Shown piece by piece: positions 14,111 to 33,254 of a stretch of 41,070 nt of DNA. The DNA comes from an uncultured archaeon (GTDB taxonomy: Archaea > Asgardarchaeota > Lokiarchaeia > Sigyniarchaeales > SOKP01), in assembly GCA_964447495.1 (NCBI GenBank), contig CAYUTF010000021.1:1-41070 (forward strand). Direction: 5' to 3'. A program made the position numbers and the translations under genes. Numbering within the stretch: the stretch's first letter is position 1; the number at the start of each line of letters is the position of its first letter. The notes under the pieces were generated by a model that saw only the letters and a program-made list of their open reading frames with translations, ran no database searches and was not told the origin of the DNA.

Positions 14111-15271
14111 TTAATAATTTCGAAATTCATTAGCAGCATCAAACATAGCGACGATATTTTGTGGTGGTACTTCAGCGGTAATATTATGGACATTAGATGC
14201 GATATATCCCCCTCCTGGTTTAAAACATTTAAGATTTAACTTCACTTCTTCTCTTATTTGCTTAGGTGTGCCAAAAGGTAGAGTATGTTGTGTATTACAT
14301 AAACCTCCCCAAAATGTAATTTTTTTTCCAAAACGATCTTTTAGACTACATGGTTCCATATCATAAGCAGAGATTTGGACAGGATTAACAGCATCATATT
14401 TAATATCAATAAAATGAGGTATAAACATAGGAATTGATCCACAGCAATGATAATTTATCTTAATATCCATAAAATCATGAATTGCATCGGAGAGCTCCTT
14501 TTCAATTGGTTTTATTATACGTTCATATGTATCTAAATTCATTAAAGGACCTTGTTGTTCAGCTAAATCACCATTCACACAAATTACTTCTAGATAACTT
14601 CCAACTTCATTTAGAAATGTTAATGAATACTCAGTCCAATATTTTAGTAGTTTTTTCATTGTAGCAATAATTAATTCCGGTTTAGTTCTTAAGTATTTTA
14701 AGGCTTTAGTAAAGCCAAATAGAAACGTTGTATATTCAAACACACACCCTGAGGTGGGAGCAATCAATGCAAATTCTGTTCTATCATATAATTCTTTAAC
14801 TTTTTCCCTAAAACCTCTAAAGGGAGTTAAATCTGTACCATCAGGCCAATCATAATTTTCAATTTCTTTAACAGTTTTGAATTCGGCTAGTGGATGAATC
14901 ACCGGATCATAATATAAAATATCGTCAATCTTTTTTTGTGCATTATTACCCCAAAAAACTCCAAATTGATCAAATACTCCCACATACTTTCCACAATATT
15001 CCACATCCATATTCTCAACCTTTATTACTCCTCCATAGGGAGAAATGTATCGAGTATCTATTTTAAATCTTTTTAACAATTCTTCGCATGGAAAGACAAT
15101 CTGTTGAGCAAAATCAGAGAATCTAATATCCTTATCTTCAATTTCAAGATATTCCAGTAATTTTAAATATGCTTTAACATGTATCCCTGATTGATTTCCC
15201 CCAAAATCAAGGGGTACCTTGTCAGGTTCAATATGATTCAACGTTTGCCGTACGCGTTCTCGTGATGTCAT
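14111..15271 (-). CDS. Uroporphyrinogen decarboxylase / MtaA-CmuA superfamily protein
   Basis: MTSRERV...H.EPDKVP N-terminus, GDLAEQ, YHCCG, FWGG, PGGGYI...HNI. Confidence 0.85.
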   Translation of the reverse strand: MTSRERVRQTLNHIEPDKVPLDFGGNQSGIHVKAYLKLLEYLEIEDKDIRFSDFAQQIVFPCEELLKRFKIDTRYISPYGGVIKVENMDVEYCGKYVGVFDQFGVFWGNNAQKKIDDILYYDPVIHPLAEFKTVKEIENYDWPDGTDLTPFRGFREKVKELYDRTEFALIAPTSGCVFEYTTFLFGFTKALKYLRTKPELIIATMKKLLKYWTEYSLTFLNEVGSYLEVICVNGDLAEQQGPLMNLDTYERIIKPIEKELSDAIHDFMDIKINYHCCGSIPMFIPHFIDIKYDAVNPVQISAYDMEPCSLKDRFGKKITFWGGLCNTQHTLPFGTPKQIREEVKLNLKCFKPGGGYIASNVHNITAEVPPQNIVAMFDAANEFRNY

Positions 15272-25435: not shown

Positions 25436-26197
25436 CTAAAATTTTCCGTGTTTTCCTTTTCCTTGTGTAAATTCATCGCTACCTTTAAGATATTCTCCAC
25501 TTTCTAAGGTTATTAATCCATATTCAAATTCTCTTTTTATAGCATCGGTATAATCCAACCCAAATTGCTCATAGGCAGATAGTCGATCATTTTTCATACA
25601 TATTTGAGGAAATTTTGAAATCTCTCTGGCCAGTTTCTCTGCTTCTTGTCTTGATTGACCTTTATCAACAATTCTATTTGCTAATCCCCAATGATACGCT
25701 TCTTCTGCAGTTACAGGTCGTCCTGTTAATATCATATCCATCGCCCGGCTCAGTCCAATCAATCTGGGAAGCCTTACGGTGCCACCATCTATTAATGGAA
25801 CGCCAAACCGGCGACAGAATACTCCAAAAATTGCACTTTTTTCTACTACTCGTAAATCACACCACAGTGCTAACTCTAATCCTCCTGCGACAGCATAACC
25901 AGATATGGCAGCAATAACAGGCTTAGATAAAATCATCCTCGTAGGGCCCATTGGACCATCTCCCGCAATTTCGATCCGATTACTCTTCCCTTCTAAAATT
26001 GCTTTAAGATTCGCTCCAGAACAAAAAATCCCTCTAGAACCCCATAGAACTGCAACAAAAGCGTTTTTATCATTATCAAATCGTCTAAATGCACCCGCAA
26101 GCTCTTGAGCAGTATTTCTATCTACTGCATTTTTTACCTCAGGATTGTCAATAATAATGGTATAGATTGGATAGTCAACTTCAATTTGTATTGGCAT
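25436..26197 (-). CDS. Enoyl-CoA hydratase/isomerase (crotonase) family protein
   Basis: FCSGANL, KPVIAAISGYAVAGGLELALWCD, LTGRPV.AEEA..WGL. Confidence 0.92.
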   Translation of the reverse strand: MPIQIEVDYPIYTIIIDNPEVKNAVDRNTAQELAGAFRRFDNDKNAFVAVLWGSRGIFCSGANLKAILEGKSNRIEIAGDGPMGPTRMILSKPVIAAISGYAVAGGLELALWCDLRVVEKSAIFGVFCRRFGVPLIDGGTVRLPRLIGLSRAMDMILTGRPVTAEEAYHWGLANRIVDKGQSRQEAEKLAREISKFPQICMKNDRLSAYEQFGLDYTDAIKREFEYGLITLESGEYLKGSDEFTQGKGKHGKF

Positions 26198-26980: not shown

Positions 26981-27907
26981 TTATTTTAGTATTTTTTGAT
27001 TCGCTATGTCGTTTACTCGCGCATAAGGATGTGGGTATCTCCCATTGTCTTTAGTATAAGATTTCATATAAAATTTGGAATATATTTGGATTGCATGGTT
27101 TGGACAGAAATTTAAACAAGAATAACATAGATAACAATCGACTTTACTATTCCATGAGGGTTTTCCATCAAAAATTCTAATTTTTTGTGAGGGGCAGACT
27201 TTTTCGCATATTCCACATCCAGTACAGCTTGACTCAACATAAAAGTAATTTCTCACCTTAGGGGCAAATCGATGGACAGCAAAAGGAACGAGTTTTTCAA
27301 GTATAAAGTTGAGAATCTTATAACGAGAGAATGTAACTCCATCTATGTTATCATGATGAGCTCTTTGAAATTTTAAAACTTCTTGAATTGAATTGATCTT
27401 TTCTTGTACCCCCTCTTCAATCCTATTGAATTCCTGTGCAGATGGAAGATAAAATGATCTTAACTTTGGGTCATTCATTCCCATATTAATAATGAAACTT
27501 GAGTCTAAATGTCTTCCCTGCTGTTTAAGTATTTTATTCATTTTTGAAAATCCACGGAAGATCGTTCCTCCACGAGTGACAACAGCAAAAATGTAATTTG
27601 TTGATAATAAGTCAAGTCTTCTTAGAATCTTTTCTACTGGAACTGGTATTGTTAATCCATGGCAAGGGAAAACAAATCCAACTTTTTCTGCATTTATTTT
27701 AACTTTGAGTGTTTTTTCATCTGTATTTATTTTTCCTAGAATTGCCGCAATTGGAATAAGTTTTGAATGAGATAATACACGATTTAACTGTTTTGCAACA
27801 TATAGCGAATTTCCAGTTCCTGAAAAATAATAAATTTCGGTTTTACTATGTTCAGAAACATCATTTTTTGAATCATTACTATAAGTCATATAATTACTAA
27901 CAGTCAT
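26981..27907 (-). CDS. EFR1-type flavodoxin-like + 2x[4Fe-4S] ferredoxin protein
   Basis: YYFSGTGNS, GFVFP, CTGCGICEKVCP and CYLCYSCLNFCP, RYPHP. Confidence 0.88.
   Translation of the reverse strand: MTVSNYMTYSNDSKNDVSEHSKTEIYYFSGTGNSLYVAKQLNRVLSHSKLIPIAAILGKINTDEKTLKVKINAEKVGFVFPCHGLTIPVPVEKILRRLDLLSTNYIFAVVTRGGTIFRGFSKMNKILKQQGRHLDSSFIINMGMNDPKLRSFYLPSAQEFNRIEEGVQEKINSIQEVLKFQRAHHDNIDGVTFSRYKILNFILEKLVPFAVHRFAPKVRNYFYVESSCTGCGICEKVCPSQKIRIFDGKPSWNSKVDCYLCYSCLNFCPNHAIQIYSKFYMKSYTKDNGRYPHPYARVNDIANQKILK
27875..27907. promoter_or_regulatory. Tandem pseudo-palindromes ATTACT-N3-AGTCAT (27875-27889, 27893-27907), candidate TetR operators
   Basis: Two 15-bp units with identical arms at 18-bp period, about 25 nt downstream of a minus-strand TTTAAATA box. 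Confidence 0.5.
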
Positions 27908-27977: not shown

Positions 27978-29153
27978 TCAATTGAGATTTAGAGGATATT
28001 TTCGAAATTTTTCGATTGCAGCCCTCAGAGCCATCAAATTTTCCCAGGGCACATTTAAAAGATCATGACTAGGACCAACAAAATATCCCCCTCCATGAGC
28101 TGCTGCATTGATACAACGTTTAACTTCATTTGCAACATCTTTGGGAGATCCAAAATTTAACACACGACTTGAATCTATCCCACCCATGAAACAGAGGCGA
28201 TCTCCCAGAGTTTTCTTTAAGTTAGCTAAATCAACTTCTGCCGCAGGTTCAAGTGCTTGAATGCAATTTAGACCTGCATTCACCATATCTGGCAGGTTTT
28301 TATCTATGTATCCACATGAATGTTGTACAATAAATATACCTCGTTTCTTGCACGCTTGATAGAGCAGTTTATAATATGGCAGAATAAAGGTACGAAAGTT
28401 TTCAAGTGATAGTATTGAACGTTTTTTATACCCCAAATCATCTGGATAAAATACAATATCGACCCCTGCTTCGGATAAACGCTTAATAATTTCTATATTA
28501 GTTTTTGTATATTCTGTGAGTACTTCATGGATAAACTGTGGATTTTTTCGCATTAGATAAGCACCGCGACTCATGGTCATTCCTTCAAATAATGATTCAT
28601 GAAGGTTAACTGGCAACTGTACCATGGGATATAAATAATCCTTTAGACTGATAACAAAATCATCCCAAATTTGAGGGCTATAATTAAGTTTATCATTAAT
28701 TAACTCTGATGGTTTTCCATATTTATTCCAATATGAATGTAAAATTTCCGGATTTTGAAAATAGCCCCCTACATACCATAAATAATTTAATCCCGTGTCT
28801 ACTTGTTTTACATATTTGTATAATGTGCCATTGATAGTATTTATCAGTAATTCTGGATATTCTGGTGGTCCTTTTTTCACACTAATCTTTATTTTTTTAG
28901 AACCCCAAGGATCTATAGCATAACAATCTACATTTAAGAATCGTAAATCGGTGATATCCCCCGCCCAGCGATATCTGATTCGTGAGTAATTGTTTTTAAT
29001 AAACGTTTTATGATCTATGAATTCCTTTTTTTTAATAAAGGTTTGATAGGAGATAGCTGTTTTTTCGAAACCCGAATAATGAATAGGAACCATGTCTGGT
29101 TCACCATCAAGTTCAAGAGTTTTTAGGACTCGTTCTCTTTTTGATAAAACCAT
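27978..29153 (-). CDS. Uroporphyrinogen decarboxylase / MtaA-CmuA superfamily protein
   Basis: LSKRERV...EPDMVP, DDLG, QHSCG, QALEP, GGID, GGGYF.GPSH. Confidence 0.85.
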   Translation of the reverse strand: MVLSKRERVLKTLELDGEPDMVPIHYSGFEKTAISYQTFIKKKEFIDHKTFIKNNYSRIRYRWAGDITDLRFLNVDCYAIDPWGSKKIKISVKKGPPEYPELLINTINGTLYKYVKQVDTGLNYLWYVGGYFQNPEILHSYWNKYGKPSELINDKLNYSPQIWDDFVISLKDYLYPMVQLPVNLHESLFEGMTMSRGAYLMRKNPQFIHEVLTEYTKTNIEIIKRLSEAGVDIVFYPDDLGYKKRSILSLENFRTFILPYYKLLYQACKKRGIFIVQHSCGYIDKNLPDMVNAGLNCIQALEPAAEVDLANLKKTLGDRLCFMGGIDSSRVLNFGSPKDVANEVKRCINAAAHGGGYFVGPSHDLLNVPWENLMALRAAIEKFRKYPLNLN

Positions 29154-29654: not shown

Positions 29655-29704
29655 TAAAAATTTCTTAGTAATTTAATTAAAAAATAGTTAGTAAAAAATA
29701 AAAT

Positions 29705-30793
29705 TTATTTTTGGTTAGTCAAATATTCGTTCATTTCTACAAAGGAGCTGGTTCGAATAAGTGCTGCTTTGAGAAACTGGAATCCTATATCATAAGTTGA
29801 GCCATCCCCACCTATATGTATTACATATGGGATTTCTCCCTTGAATTGCCCTTTCGATTTTAATATTTTATATGAAGTGCTAATGGCATCTGCAATAGTT
29901 GCTCCCGATTCGAAGAGATGATGCACCCATGGAACTTTCCAAGAGGTTACAAAGTCTTTGGAAGTAGAAACTTCTGAGCAACTTGTATTATTGACATATA
30001 TGATATTATTAGCAGTAACAGCATATGCCGCTGTAGCCATTTGATTTAAAACCATTCCCGCGCCGCATCCTGGACAGAGGCCGTGTCCTGGTTGTAAGTG
30101 TTGCTGAGGCTCAAGAGTTTTTCTGTTTATTCGATAAATATCGACCGGTTTTTCGGCTCCAAAAACTTCGATTAGTTTTTTGAGTCTATCGTTGCGTTGT
30201 TCGGTAAAATAGATAATTTCATCAATTTCTCTTTCAAGGAACTTGGGTTTAAATAAATGTTTAAAACGACCCATTGATTTTAAATACTCAACGAATTTCT
30301 CTTTATCCACATCTAATCCACGGTAATAGGAAAATTTTGGGACTCCTTCTTTTATCCTTATTGTATAGAGAGGCCAATAACCACACTCTGTTGCTAGCTT
30401 TGAAATTGCTACAGCATCACTAGCTCCATGTCTCCAACCTCTCATGCAATCCGAATAGCTTTGTATAAAAGCAGATCCATTTGTTTTCAAAGCTTCAGCA
30501 ACTTTTCCCATAAAGTCATTAGGAAACGCAGGATTGGCTGTTGCTAAAAATAGTGACTTGGTTCCATAAAACGCAAATGGAGTAACAAGGTCTTGTTTTA
30601 CACCTATTTTTCCCGGTATCTTTTCTCCACCAGGACCAGTAGTAGTTGAAGCAAATGGAGGCGTTGCTCCTGATTCCTGAATTCCTGTATTCATAAAAGC
30701 TTCGTTATCATAGTTAAAAAATAATACATTGCTTTTCTCATCTCTTGCGAGAATATCTTCAAACTTTATTATGTTTCTTTCTGGTTGCGACAT
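29705..30793 (-). CDS. porB: Pyruvate/2-oxoacid:ferredoxin oxidoreductase beta subunit, circularly permuted
   Basis: YDNEAFMNTGIQ at the N-terminus; GHGLCPGCG, NTSCSEV, PWVHHLFE and GGDGSTYDIGFQ in the C-terminal third; GGAGG RBS, ATG 1 nt after the porA stop. Confidence 0.9.
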   Translation of the reverse strand: MSQPERNIIKFEDILARDEKSNVLFFNYDNEAFMNTGIQESGATPPFASTTTGPGGEKIPGKIGVKQDLVTPFAFYGTKSLFLATANPAFPNDFMGKVAEALKTNGSAFIQSYSDCMRGWRHGASDAVAISKLATECGYWPLYTIRIKEGVPKFSYYRGLDVDKEKFVEYLKSMGRFKHLFKPKFLEREIDEIIYFTEQRNDRLKKLIEVFGAEKPVDIYRINRKTLEPQQHLQPGHGLCPGCGAGMVLNQMATAAYAVTANNIIYVNNTSCSEVSTSKDFVTSWKVPWVHHLFESGATIADAISTSYKILKSKGQFKGEIPYVIHIGGDGSTYDIGFQFLKAALIRTSSFVEMNEYLTNQK

Positions 30794-30794
30794 T

Positions 30795-32024
30795 TTAATC
30801 CTCCACTCCATATAATTTATCTTTCTTTTCTCTTACGCCAAGATACATATATAATTTACCTTTCATGTCCGATACTTGTGCCATTTTCTTTTTTGCAACA
30901 TCAAACTCATCTCGAGTCACATCTCGTCCGCCTAATCCAACAATAAAACTCCTAAATAACGTTTTAAGGGGATATAACGCTGAAGCAATTGTCATTGAAA
31001 AGGGTGGAAGCATCCCATTTAGAGAATCAGATTTTTCTAAAATAATCAGCTTCTCAATGTTATATTCCTCTACAATTCTTTGTAATTCTTCATAAGGAAA
31101 TGGTCGAAAGGTTCGAATTTTGATTAAACCAATATCTTTATTTTTAGTCATCCAACTTACGATATTTCCACACATGGATCCCATGGTAATAAACGCTGTT
31201 CTGGTGGAATTATCCAGATTGTACGTTTCTATCATGCTATAATTTCTCCCAGTTGCTTTGCCAAATTCTTCAAAACTTTTCTTCATTATCCCAAGAACTG
31301 GCTCTTTTGCTTCATCAATGTTCTTTCTTCCTTCCATAAAGAAACTTGGCGTAACAATGCCACCCCAGGTACCGGGATGTTTTGTATTTATGGTATGTCG
31401 TGGTTTCCGAGGCGTTAATTTCCGAACAATCTCATCAGGGATTAATGTTAATTTTTGTACTGAATGGGAAATAATAAACCCATCATGGACGAACATTGTA
31501 GGAAATAAGGAGTTATCGGAGATCATTACTGCTAATATAGCTGCATCATAAGTTTCTTGCACATTTTCAGATACTATGGTATTCCACCCTAATTCAGAAT
31601 TAGTTTGAGTATATTCCCACGAATTCCATATAGATAAATTGGGAGAATTAAACGCTCGTGCCGAAATCATCATGGTTAATGGAACTCTCCACCCTACAGC
31701 CATCGGTAAGGCTTCAGTCATCAATAAGTAACCTTGAGATGCTGTTGCTGTGAAGGTTCTTGCTCCTACGGCACAAGCTGCAGTAGAATATGATATTGCG
31801 GCTAATTCAGATTCAACATTGACGAACGCTGCTTTTAACCTTCCTTGGTTTACAACATCAGATAAACCTTCAACTGCTTGAGTTTGAGGTGTAATTGGAA
31901 ACGCACAAATAACATCAGGATCAGTCTGCGTGACTGCTCCTGCAACGGCGTAATTGCCTATCATGCTTGTAACGACAGGTTCCTTAATCTCTTTGAAAAA
32001 TAGTCTCATTGGTTCAATTGACAT
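30795..32024 (-). CDS. porA: Pyruvate/2-oxoacid:ferredoxin oxidoreductase alpha subunit
   Basis: GNYAVA, AFPITPQT, VESE, TATASQG, DGFIISH, RTFRPFP, GLGGRD; AGGAGGT RBS before ATG 32024. Confidence 0.92.
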   Translation of the reverse strand: MSIEPMRLFFKEIKEPVVTSMIGNYAVAGAVTQTDPDVICAFPITPQTQAVEGLSDVVNQGRLKAAFVNVESELAAISYSTAACAVGARTFTATASQGYLLMTEALPMAVGWRVPLTMMISARAFNSPNLSIWNSWEYTQTNSELGWNTIVSENVQETYDAAILAVMISDNSLFPTMFVHDGFIISHSVQKLTLIPDEIVRKLTPRKPRHTINTKHPGTWGGIVTPSFFMEGRKNIDEAKEPVLGIMKKSFEEFGKATGRNYSMIETYNLDNSTRTAFITMGSMCGNIVSWMTKNKDIGLIKIRTFRPFPYEELQRIVEEYNIEKLIILEKSDSLNGMLPPFSMTIASALYPLKTLFRSFIVGLGGRDVTRDEFDVAKKKMAQVSDMKGKLYMYLGVREKKDKLYGVED

Positions 32025-32025
32025 A

Positions 32026-33027
32026 TTAATTACCTCCTTCTTGATCTTCAGGAACTGCACAAGCAGCAGGTCCTTGTTTTAGTCGTTTATCAATCGCGTC
32101 TACGGGGCAAATCTCAAGGCAATTCAAACATGATTTACAGTGAAAACTATCTATGCCAGCCATATGCCATAATCCATCATCTCCTTTTTTCCGAACAATA
32201 GCAAAATCAGGACATATGTACCAACATTGGGCACAATCAGTGCACTTTTCTTCGTCCCATATAACATCCCACTCTCCCCAGCTTCCTGTGTTTACTTGGT
32301 CACTTCCGACTGGAATGACTTCTTCATCACAGTACCACACTCCTGCTAAATCTAATTCCTTATAACCAGGTAAATCTAAATCTACTTGCTGCCATCGAAC
32401 TTTATTATCAATAGTAAAATCTGGATCAACACCAATATCATAGACACATGTTTCTTCAATTGCTTGCTTAATGGCCTCAATATTTTTCCCTGCAATTTGT
32501 CCTACAAATCTGCGCATTATGGCATCAGCTAATTCATCTAAAGTGAAGATATAAGAGACTCTAATTAAAGCTCCCAAGATAATCGTATTTGTTATATTTC
32601 TTCCCAAGACGTCTAAAGCAATTCGTGTTGCATCTATTGTGGCAACATTAATATCTTTTCTCTTTACTGTTTCTTGAATAGAAATTTGATCAAGAGTGGT
32701 ATTTACGATAAGCCAGCCTCCTTTTGGGAGTCCCGCAGTTACATCTATTTCACCTAAAAGTGAAGGATCCAATACAGAAACGAAATGAGGGGAATATACT
32801 TGCTCATTTGAGCGAATAAGGTTTGCATTAGCTGATAATCTCACATAACTTTCTGTTGGACTTCCCATTCTTTCTGCGCCAAATCTTGGTTGACAGATGC
32901 CATATCCATAGAAGGCTTCGACACATAAATTTGAAGCAGTTACACCACCTTGCCCACCTCTAGCATGAAATCGAAGATTAATCGTGTTATCCTTTAAAAC
33001 TTCTTTAATTTTTTCTGGAGTTAACAT
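32026..33027 (-). CDS. porC: Fused gamma + delta (ferredoxin) subunit of 2-oxoacid:ferredoxin oxidoreductase
   Basis: RFHARGGQG, FGAERMGSP, IDATRIA, NTIILGA (gamma); NTGSW, CTDCAQCWYICP, CKSCLNCLEICP (delta). Confidence 0.9.
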   Translation of the reverse strand: MLTPEKIKEVLKDNTINLRFHARGGQGGVTASNLCVEAFYGYGICQPRFGAERMGSPTESYVRLSANANLIRSNEQVYSPHFVSVLDPSLLGEIDVTAGLPKGGWLIVNTTLDQISIQETVKRKDINVATIDATRIALDVLGRNITNTIILGALIRVSYIFTLDELADAIMRRFVGQIAGKNIEAIKQAIEETCVYDIGVDPDFTIDNKVRWQQVDLDLPGYKELDLAGVWYCDEEVIPVGSDQVNTGSWGEWDVIWDEEKCTDCAQCWYICPDFAIVRKKGDDGLWHMAGIDSFHCKSCLNCLEICPVDAIDKRLKQGPAACAVPEDQEGGN

Positions 33028-33254
33028 TTGAATTTTCACATTTTAATTGATTTTTAAAATAGTTAATGCTATTTAGAGTAATTTTTTATACAAAATTAAG
33101 GTTTTTCCATTTAATCTATAAGGGGAGAATTGGATAAATTAAATTTGAGTGAAGAAAGATTAAATTAAAGAATTTTGAATATGAAAAAATAATGAAGTTT
33201 TTAGGATTTGTTTCTTTTACAATATCATTCAAGTATTAATTAGGGATTTAAGTA

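Follow-up and report, generated by a model that had tools for sequence, protein, structure and literature searches.

The stretch of DNA analysed here (the window) comprises 41,070 nucleotides of contig CAYUTF010000021.1 (NCBI GenBank assembly GCA_964447495.1), from an uncultured archaeon of the Lokiarchaeia. Three coupled genes occupy its minus strand at 33039-29705: porCD, porA, and a porB gene in which the two halves of the beta subunit of a 2-oxoacid:ferredoxin oxidoreductase (OFOR) are encoded in swapped order. We refer to the latter as permuted porB and to its product as permuted PorB; all features described below lie on the minus strand. porCD (32026..33039) encodes a fused gamma-delta subunit carrying two CxxCxxCxxxCP ferredoxin motifs and matches Pfam POR and Fer4; both the PorC and PorD models match its product, and the delta model of oxalate oxidoreductase (OOR) matches PorCD residues 56-317. 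porA (30795..32024) encodes the alpha subunit of 409 aa, recognized by Pfam POR_N and PFOR_II and by PorA_Arch, with its start at the ATG at 32024, while the list of open reading frames (ORFs) puts a GTG at 32060. Permuted porB (29705..30793) encodes 362 aa followed by a TAA stop (29707-29705). The ATG at 30793 was taken as its start, and a second candidate ATG lies upstream at 30811; most relatives are 361-362 aa long and start at the position equivalent to 30793. A GGAGG ribosome-binding site (30800..30804) is located 6 nt before this ATG, and the TAA stop of porA (30795-30797) is separated from it by one base. At the porCD-porA junction the arrangement is identical, with GGAGG at 32033-32037, TAA at 32026-32028, a single base and the ATG at 32024, so that the GGAGG ribosome-binding site and the shared TAA-N-ATG coupling described in the first-pass annotation, made from the sequence alone, were found as it had reported them. 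Right after the permuted porB stop there is a T-rich run (29690..29703) which, by inference from archaeal oligo-T terminators, is likely the end of the operon; a scan for bacterial-type promoters and terminators, applying bacterial models to an archaeal host, gave nothing at 29690-29703.

Permuted PorB begins with a new N-terminal extension (residues 1-18; 30740..30793) that falls outside the profile matches. It is followed by the equivalent of the C-terminal half of PorB (residues 19-210; 30164..30739), delimited by NF008818, the PDB chain 9bt4_C and the structural aligner VIA. This segment contains the strand before DN, YDNEAFMNTGIQ (residues 28-39; 30677-30712), SDCMRGW with the cluster cysteine Cys116 (residues 114-120; 30434-30454), YWPLY (residues 139-143), GRFKHL (residues 175-180; 30254-30271), as well as the helix at the native C-terminus. 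A linker of some 13 residues (approximately 211-223; 30125..30163), seen as the gap between two profile matches, is the sole new linker of the protein and joins the native C-terminus to the native N-terminus. The equivalent of the N-terminal half (residues 224-347; 29753..30124; profile, 9bt4_C and VIA) then runs through GHGLCPGCG with Cys240 and Cys243 (residues 236-244; 30062-30088), TSCSEV with Cys272 (residues 270-275; 29969-29986) and GGDGSTYDIG (residues 328-337; 29783-29812), the helix after which ends at Arg347. The chain closes with a new, conserved C-terminal tail (residues 348-362; 29708..29752). The first-pass annotation had placed GHGLCPGCG exactly. It had also located YDNEAFMNTGIQ and GGDGSTYDIG correctly, but the intervals it gave were too short: 30704-30712 spans just the first three codons of the former, and 29801-29812 covers only GGDG of the latter.

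The swapped order was observed with every type of reference used. The NCBIfam PorB profile NF008819 matched window positions 30221-30739 with profile positions 117-290 and 29738-30124 with profile positions 5-122, and the VorB model NF008818 aligned residues 19-210 with profile positions 118-298 of 300. In the PDB chain 9bt4_C, residues 23-193 of permuted PorB corresponded to 119-282 and residues 229-347 to 6-115; in 5c4i_C, residues 22-186 corresponded to 130-289 and residues 228-347 to 12-127. A BLASTP comparison with a canonical PorB of the same genome paired residues 16-189 with 134-301 and residues 230-349 with 23-139, and residues 134-139 of the canonical protein aligned to both ends of permuted PorB. 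Nearly all of the canonical sequence is retained, profile positions 5-122 and 117-298 being present, and the reading frame is open across the linker with both halves inside one ORF. Since the profile coordinates occur in swapped order, circular permutation is proven; judged by its sequence, ORF 29705-30793 is a true circular permutant of a PorB-type beta subunit, cut between GDG and DN. The features that define a circular permutant, namely, swapped near-complete segments, a short linker within one ORF, occurrence in independent genomes and selection, were all found.

The GDG-X(about 25-30)-N motif is the textbook mark of thiamine diphosphate (ThDP) enzymes and is treated as one contiguous beta-alpha-beta unit. 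In permuted PorB the ThDP/Mg motif residues, GDG and (D)N...NTG.Q, are all present, with their order in the chain reversed: DNE occupies residues 29-31 and GDG residues 329-331. Among 60 canonical relatives examined, the distance between GDG and DNE was 28 residues in all 38 in which both motifs were found. The motif order that the first-pass annotation had read from the letters, with the DN half first, the GDG half last and the two at opposite termini, is borne out by the profile, PDB chain and BLASTP alignments, in which each half matches canonical PorB as it had anticipated. Taking into account the ThDP fold and the secondary structure of our model, the cut should lie in the turn that links the helix following GDG to the strand preceding DN, and this turn should be the end of the beta-alpha-beta unit far from the cofactor.

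The permuted order is not restricted to this contig. A search among 5.8 billion proteins (NCBI, JGI, ENA and Logan) gave 460 matches, of which 120 were listed; 107 of these 120 covered at least 95% of permuted PorB in one alignment, at 54-93% identity. After clustering at 50%, the same order was present, among the matches listed, in one other full-length representative, P0122 (55% identity), and in some fragments, and the remaining listed matches with both halves had the canonical order. In contigs from one genome per species, a relative was encoded in 135 genomes; the best 80 of these all carried the permuted order at full or near-full length, with 78-92% identity, including CP070831.1, whose record is titled as a chromosome. 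Nearly all record titles of these 80 loci were Promethearchaeota or Promethearchaeia, which agrees with the Lokiarchaeia/Asgard affiliation presumed in the first-pass annotation. We also surveyed 400 genomes of the phylum, counting by hand the genomes with a best E <= 1e-100; each such match is one alignment along the permuted protein and has full length except where a contig end or an insert interrupts it. Of the 160 genomes belonging to the class, 128 carry permuted porB, against 1 of the 239 that belong to other classes. Its own genus accounts for 32 (of 41 genomes), the remainder of the family for 74 (of 93), the order's other families for 17 (of 19) and the other orders of the class for 5 (of 7). 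The sole match outside the class (G075:C23:2002-2799, 83% identical) is located at the end of a contig that was probably misbinned. The internal junction was bridged by contigs of two other sequencing runs, X2 (30034-30710) and X3 (29719-30501), which span the linker with 0 differences; these runs are salt-marsh metagenomes, perhaps from one campaign. It is confirmed that permuted porB is a genuine class-specific gene and not a misassembly. The first-pass annotation had argued against a misassembly and had regarded canonical order in all close relatives as the sign of an assembly error; many independent assemblies share the permuted order instead, and the search of other Asgard genomes that it proposed gave the figures above.

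The surroundings of the gene are also conserved. Of the 80 close loci, 76 have porA immediately upstream of permuted porB and the remaining four begin at a contig end; of the 16 divergent loci, 15 have it there. porCD occurs in 67 of the close loci and 13 of the divergent ones. Only one of the 16 divergent loci, L109 (G279:C1:1497500-1508700), on a single-contig genome, has neither porA nor porCD within 5 kb. In 108 full-length sequences, diverging to 54% identity, the residues Y28, D29, N30, E31, N35, T36, G37 and Q39, the cysteines C116, C240, C243 and C272, and G329-D330-G331 were invariant. The four cysteines, which we take to be the proximal [4Fe-4S] ligands by homology to solved OFORs, are all retained, as the first-pass annotation had noted. 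The ratio of nonsynonymous to synonymous rates (dN/dS) was calculated by the Nei-Gojobori method from 25 coding sequences, those of the window and of 24 of the 80 loci; it was 0.062 for the whole gene, a value that rests on 24 of 300 pairs with a proportion of synonymous differences (pS) below 0.6, the pairs not being independent. By region, dN/dS was 0.055 and 0.052 in the two halves, 0.109 in the linker (residues 194-228), 0.137 in the N-terminal extension and 0.043 in the C-terminal tail, so that the tail (348-362) is constrained as strongly as the core. Permuted porB is kept under purifying selection. Considering conservation, selection, operon and models together, we predict that it is very probably functional; the earlier claim of a functional gene agrees with the order shared among assemblies, the dN/dS of 0.06 and the conserved operon.

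A monomer model of permuted PorB was obtained with AlphaFold2 from the alignment of 108 sequences, with a mean predicted local distance difference test (pLDDT) of 84.5 and a predicted template modelling score (pTM) of 0.89. All strands and helices of the pyrophosphate-binding (PP) domain were present in the model, in the order that the permutation dictates. It was also possible to see new elements: a strand at 6-10, a helix at 11-15, a linker strand at 212-221 and a tail helix at 354-358. The mean pLDDT was 77 for residues 1-10, 97 for residues 11-20, and 94 for each of the stretches 211-220 and 221-230. In a Foldseek search, all 24 matches with E <= 0.001 were OFOR chains, the best being 9bt4_C (E 2.4e-11, TMt 0.52, 185 columns). 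With VIA, residues 18-206 of the model were superimposed on 89-295 of 9bt4_C (Z 12.8, root mean square deviation 2.5, 173 aligned), residues 224-362 on the N-terminal half of 6n2n_B, of a 2-oxoglutarate:ferredoxin oxidoreductase (Z 5.6), and residues 236-361 on the N-terminal half of 5b47_B, the OFOR beta subunit of Sulfolobus (Z 5.3). Since these aligners keep the chain order, a coverage of about half per match is what is expected of a permutant.

Docking of permuted PorB on PorA was then modelled from alignments of our own (26 rows for PorA and 32 for permuted PorB), together with three controls. The interface score ipSAE was 0.82, 0.84 and 0.81, against 0.00 for the best of the three controls; the pass mark is attained by 58 of the 80 solved complexes and 2 of the 110 mismatched pairs of the calibration, which is only rough for alignments of our own. 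The runs agreed in at least 94% of contacts, with a partner pLDDT of 85-87. The model sets one beta on one alpha with 139-147 contacts, and the interface with PorA is formed by beta residues 262-358, including residues 347, 351, 355 and 357-358 of the tail region. A location of the tail in this modelled interface would explain its strong constraint. The docking pass may reflect likeness to similar complexes of known structure (9bt4, 5c4i).

With respect to its identity, permuted PorB has the marks of an OFOR beta subunit: the ThDP/Mg motif, the four cysteines (CxxC, TxC and the C in PC..GW) and alpha, gamma and delta neighbours. No equivalog cut-off for a pyruvate-specific pyruvate:ferredoxin oxidoreductase was reached by the alpha, beta or gamma-delta models. 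On sequence grounds it would be the beta subunit of a putative 2-oxoacid oxidoreductase, a pyruvate specificity being unsupported by the equivalog models. The family is almost always named "hypothetical protein" in NCBI records and "pyruvate/2-oxoacid:ferredoxin oxidoreductase beta subunit" by JGI, and the ESM Atlas contained generic OFOR-beta clusters only. The window contains an enoyl-CoA hydratase family gene (PRK08259 type; 25436-26197), which in other genomes usually comes directly after porB, as seen in 44 of the 80 loci. This neighbour was considered as a hint of the substrate and rejected, since the family carries no specific function.

To place the permuted family, a tree was built from 88 rows: 17 of 32 permuted sequences, re-ordered; 60 canonical representatives of 270-345 aa from among 150 listed, fusions and fragments being left out; and 11 canonical ORFs taken from Asgard loci and from the genome to which the window belongs. 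The 17 permuted rows formed one clade, with a stem 1.3 changes per column long and a support of 100 in the Shimodaira-Hasegawa-like approximate likelihood ratio test. In other Asgard classes, the nearest canonical genes belong to porC-porD-porA-porB operons, and both halves of permuted PorB are 37-44% identical to the matching halves of the same canonical Asgard beta subunits. The permutation most likely arose once, in an ancestor of one Asgard class (Promethearchaeia/Lokiarchaeia by record titles). The likely route is a tandem duplication of porB, followed by in-frame fusion and loss of the outer halves; that the native termini are kept and joined head to tail favours this sequence of duplication, fusion and trimming. 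It is also observed that gamma and delta form one fused ORF in the permuted-beta operons (window 32026-33039), and two separate matches in the nearest canonical Asgard operons (L088-L097), in different frames in L088. The operon therefore carries a second rearrangement, comparable to the fused delta subunit of oxalate oxidoreductase.

Taken together, it is probable that permuted PorB is the ThDP/[4Fe-4S] beta subunit of a three-gene 2-oxoacid:ferredoxin oxidoreductase, refolded as the canonical subunit and with a single origin in the class. The chain would start at the strand before the DN half, pass through the canonical C-terminal half, cross the linker of about 13 residues to the canonical N-terminus and end after the GDG loop and its helix. 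An ordinary PP domain would most likely still be formed, in which the C-terminal GDG and the N-terminal DN meet at the diphosphate-Mg, Cys240, Cys243, Cys272 and Cys116 would still bind the proximal cluster, and a beta-alpha-beta turn pointing away from the cofactor would hold the new chain ends. Docked on PorA, the subunit would take part in the CoA-dependent oxidation of a 2-oxoacid, which yields acyl-CoA, CO2 and reduced ferredoxin.

Several observations weigh against this interpretation. The scores stayed under the curated cut-offs of NF008819 (209 bits against 405), NF045792 (OOR; 186 against 590) and NF008818 (175 against 405); PorA_Arch likewise gave 307 bits against a cut-off of 550, and Pfam PF02775 (TPP_enzyme_C) was passed only at the borderline (22.4 against 21.9). 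For PorB, the split match caused by the permutation, together with sequence divergence, accounts for the sub-threshold scores. The pLDDT was low in the cofactor loop (31-70) and in the C-terminal tail (tail 56-63 in the monomer model), and since Foldseek and VIA keep the chain order each half was matched separately, a canonical packing of the two being presumed. The sister group of the permuted clade had a support of only 17. Duplicate remnants were searched with hhalign, comparing the tail (346-362) and the N-terminal extension (1-19) with the canonical PorB alignment, and the best matches fell elsewhere, with P of 0.05 and 0.15; the only trace of an overlap is that profile positions 117-122 (6 positions) and an A-x-x-R-x-S stretch are aligned twice. 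Permuted porB is missing from G267 and G270, two genomes of the same genus rated 100% complete, which indicates that it is dispensable. Finally, the only signal in an RNA library is a pair of 151-nt contigs from run X10 (30435-30585 and 30798-30948), which match the window with 0 differences and may derive from residual DNA.

Considering these points, other explanations have to be weighed. The chance that a chimeric contig or a mis-joined repeat created the swapped order is practically nil. The source genome is indeed fragmented (223 contigs) and its two canonical porB copies could in principle confuse an assembler; yet these copies are only about 30% identical to permuted PorB, the junction is bridged without differences by other runs, and the same order recurs in the 107 of 120 listed proteins from four sources, in all 80 listed species genomes and in 128 of the 160 genomes of the class. 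An assembly artefact is refuted by such independent assemblies. It is very improbable, in turn, that the gene is real but dead, a relic that gives no working subunit. This could be argued from the sub-threshold family scores, from the complete relatives that lack the gene and from an insert with stop codons in five relatives (described below). Against it stand the low dN/dS, of about 0.06 overall and low in all regions, the invariance of the catalytic and cluster residues in 108 sequences, the conserved operon and translational coupling, and the fact that even the interrupted copies differ by a proportion of nonsynonymous differences (pN) of 0.05-0.17 against a pS of 0.70-0.88.

A functional subunit could also work otherwise than as a refolded canonical monomer. 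OFORs are dimers of heteromers, and the halves might pair with those of a second chain by a domain swap across the dimer, or the subunit might have an altered role, for example with cofactor binding gated by assembly. The model is least confident in the cofactor loop and the tail, the tail is constrained like the core and placed on PorA in the complex model, and the packing of the two halves is presumed, all of which leave some room for this alternative. We regard it as unlikely, considering that the monomer model is compact, that the length of the linker and the native ends suit an intramolecular closure and that the complex model sets one beta on one alpha. With regard to the origin, the competing route is that porB was split at the cut site into two genes that were reordered and fused again, without any tandem duplication. 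This has a somewhat better, though still small, chance. It agrees with the lack of a clear duplicate remnant at the termini, with the proteins P0214, P0238 and P0263, which consist of the C-terminal half only and start with Met near the cut site, and with the inteins found in the same motif of canonical PorB, which indicate that the region tolerates interruption. The near-complete native C- and N-termini placed head to tail are, on the contrary, the signature of a tandem read-through, the small overlap of profile positions 117-122 appears at both ends, and the shorter homologues were fragments of many lengths among which no consistent split form of the permuted family was seen. The longer homologues were only intein-bearing or alpha-beta fused canonical forms, with no fused permuted form among them. 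It is noted that P0214, P0238, P0263 and also P0220, with only the C-terminal half of PorB and a Met within a few residues of the cut site, may be naturally split beta subunits.

Returning to permuted PorB as a rearranged canonical subunit, its closest known counterpart in sequence and fold is canonical PorB itself (NF008819; 9bt4 chain C, of the pyruvate:ferredoxin oxidoreductase (PFOR) of Methanosarcina acetivorans), with which it shares the ThDP motif residues, the four cluster cysteines and the partner genes, and from which it differs by the swap at profile position 117-122 or so and by the new N-terminal extension, linker and C-terminal tail. The two canonical PorBs of its own genome are 30-37% identical to it. 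The second-best beta match is the oxalate oxidoreductase of Moorella thermoacetica (5c4i, 5exd, 5exe; NF045792, NF045790), which has the same three-subunit layout with gamma and delta fused; its beta subunit, however, is canonical in order, the score is far from its cut-off and nothing here points to oxalate as substrate. Within the ThDP superfamily the domains occur as PP, pyrimidine-binding (PYR) and third domain in the transketolase and dehydrogenase type and as PYR, third domain and PP in the decarboxylase type, and the cofactor site is kept in both, as in permuted PorB. In these enzymes each PP domain is contiguous with an intact GDG-X-N, whereas permuted PorB is cut inside the PP domain. 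In one account of ThDP enzymes, "circular permutation" refers to the order of whole domains (bioRxiv 10.1101/2021.03.21.436335). The split-gene transketolase of Carboxydothermus hydrogenoformans is reported to be a ThDP enzyme with a broken chain that is still active (PMC7661550); it consists of two polypeptides, while in permuted PorB the reordering is within one chain. A natural interruption of the same ThDP motif is also seen in intein-bearing canonical PorBs (P0127, P0136, P0209; P0272-P0274), where one intein site is just before DNE, after the strand, and the other between DNEAYMN and TG; there the intein is spliced out and leaves the canonical order.

No description of a permuted OFOR beta subunit was found in the full-text literature, a search that left outside the subscription journals and the supplementary tables, which may list the gene. 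The terms "permut", Asgard and Loki are absent from a review of PFOR diversity (PMC13768988, 2026), and the accessible text of the paper on the isolation of MK-D1 discusses 2-oxoacid:ferredoxin oxidoreductases, the permuted beta subunit not being mentioned there (PMC7015854). Permuted PorB would then be undescribed so far, in agreement with the first-pass annotation, which knew of no natural permutant of PorB, while circular rearrangement of ThDP-enzyme domains is already known. It represents a natural enzyme family that has long kept a ThDP site with the halves of its motif at opposite ends of the chain, and it offers a ready test of the role of chain connectivity in cofactor binding and folding of OFORs. 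As the family scores are below the cut-offs and the records are named "hypothetical protein", metabolic reconstructions of Lokiarchaeia probably miss one OFOR; 2-oxoacid oxidation is central to the energy metabolism of these archaea, according to the accessible part of the same isolation paper. Being a clade-specific rearrangement, it also provides the class with a clean genomic marker.

A further observation concerns permuted porB in five related genomes, where an insert breaks the gene immediately downstream of the GGA codon of NTG (equivalent to residue 37). The inserts lie within L114:438-493 (G163), L115:418-473 (G274), L116:467-522 (G273), L118:1088-1143 (G276) and L119:1055-1110 (G159), and their lengths were 30, 30, 30, 31 and 28-31 nt, two of them breaking the reading frame. 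Each insert ends in AGA, has in-frame stops and folds into its own hairpin of 7-10 bp, whose stem sequence varies among the genomes; RNAalifold showed compensatory changes in 3 of 18 pairs. Removal of the insert restores NTG-(V/L/I)QESG, and the 239-329 codons downstream are open, with the pN and pS given above between interrupted copies. The insert is present in 5 of the 128 genomes of the class with permuted porB, and the window's own gene does not carry it. It is possible that it represents a small mRNA intron, a translational bypass or a site-specific palindromic insertion. A scan of the five interrupted loci against Rfam gave 0 matches, no canonical bulge-helix-bulge motif could be fitted to the intervening sequences by eye, without a formal classifier, and the word "mRNA" is absent from a preprint on Asgard tRNA introns (10.64898/2026.10.13.758758, 2026). 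Nine protein clusters (P0088, P0091, P0096, P0098, P0101, P0103, P0105, P0114 and P0115) start at an internal Met (81, 95, 100 or 117) and extend as far as the natural C-terminus; among the matches listed, some of them are on contigs of 17-148 kb. Such starts are the expected output of a gene caller for copies interrupted in their 5′ part, so that the insert may extend beyond five genomes and interrupted permuted porB may be commoner than these suggest.

A more far-reaching reading brings these features together: the ThDP/Mg site would be closed by the joining of the chain ends, the tail on PorA would make the site depend on alpha-beta assembly, the enzyme with its fused gamma-delta subunit would be an OFOR type peculiar to the class and distinct in substrate and regulation, and in some lineages the hairpin element would be removed from the mRNA or bypassed. 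We consider this speculative and rather doubtful as a whole.

Among the remaining loci, L113 (G123) has a divergent copy of permuted porB with an in-frame TAG. In L117 (G259:C34) a single stretch of 715 codons, in frame 1 and starting at nt 1085, is open from porA into permuted porB; it is either a natural alpha-beta fusion or the result of a lost stop codon. Near the operon, the window also contains two MtaA/URO-D-family methyltransferase-like genes and an EFR1-family ferredoxin (14111-15271, 26981-27907 and 27978-29153).

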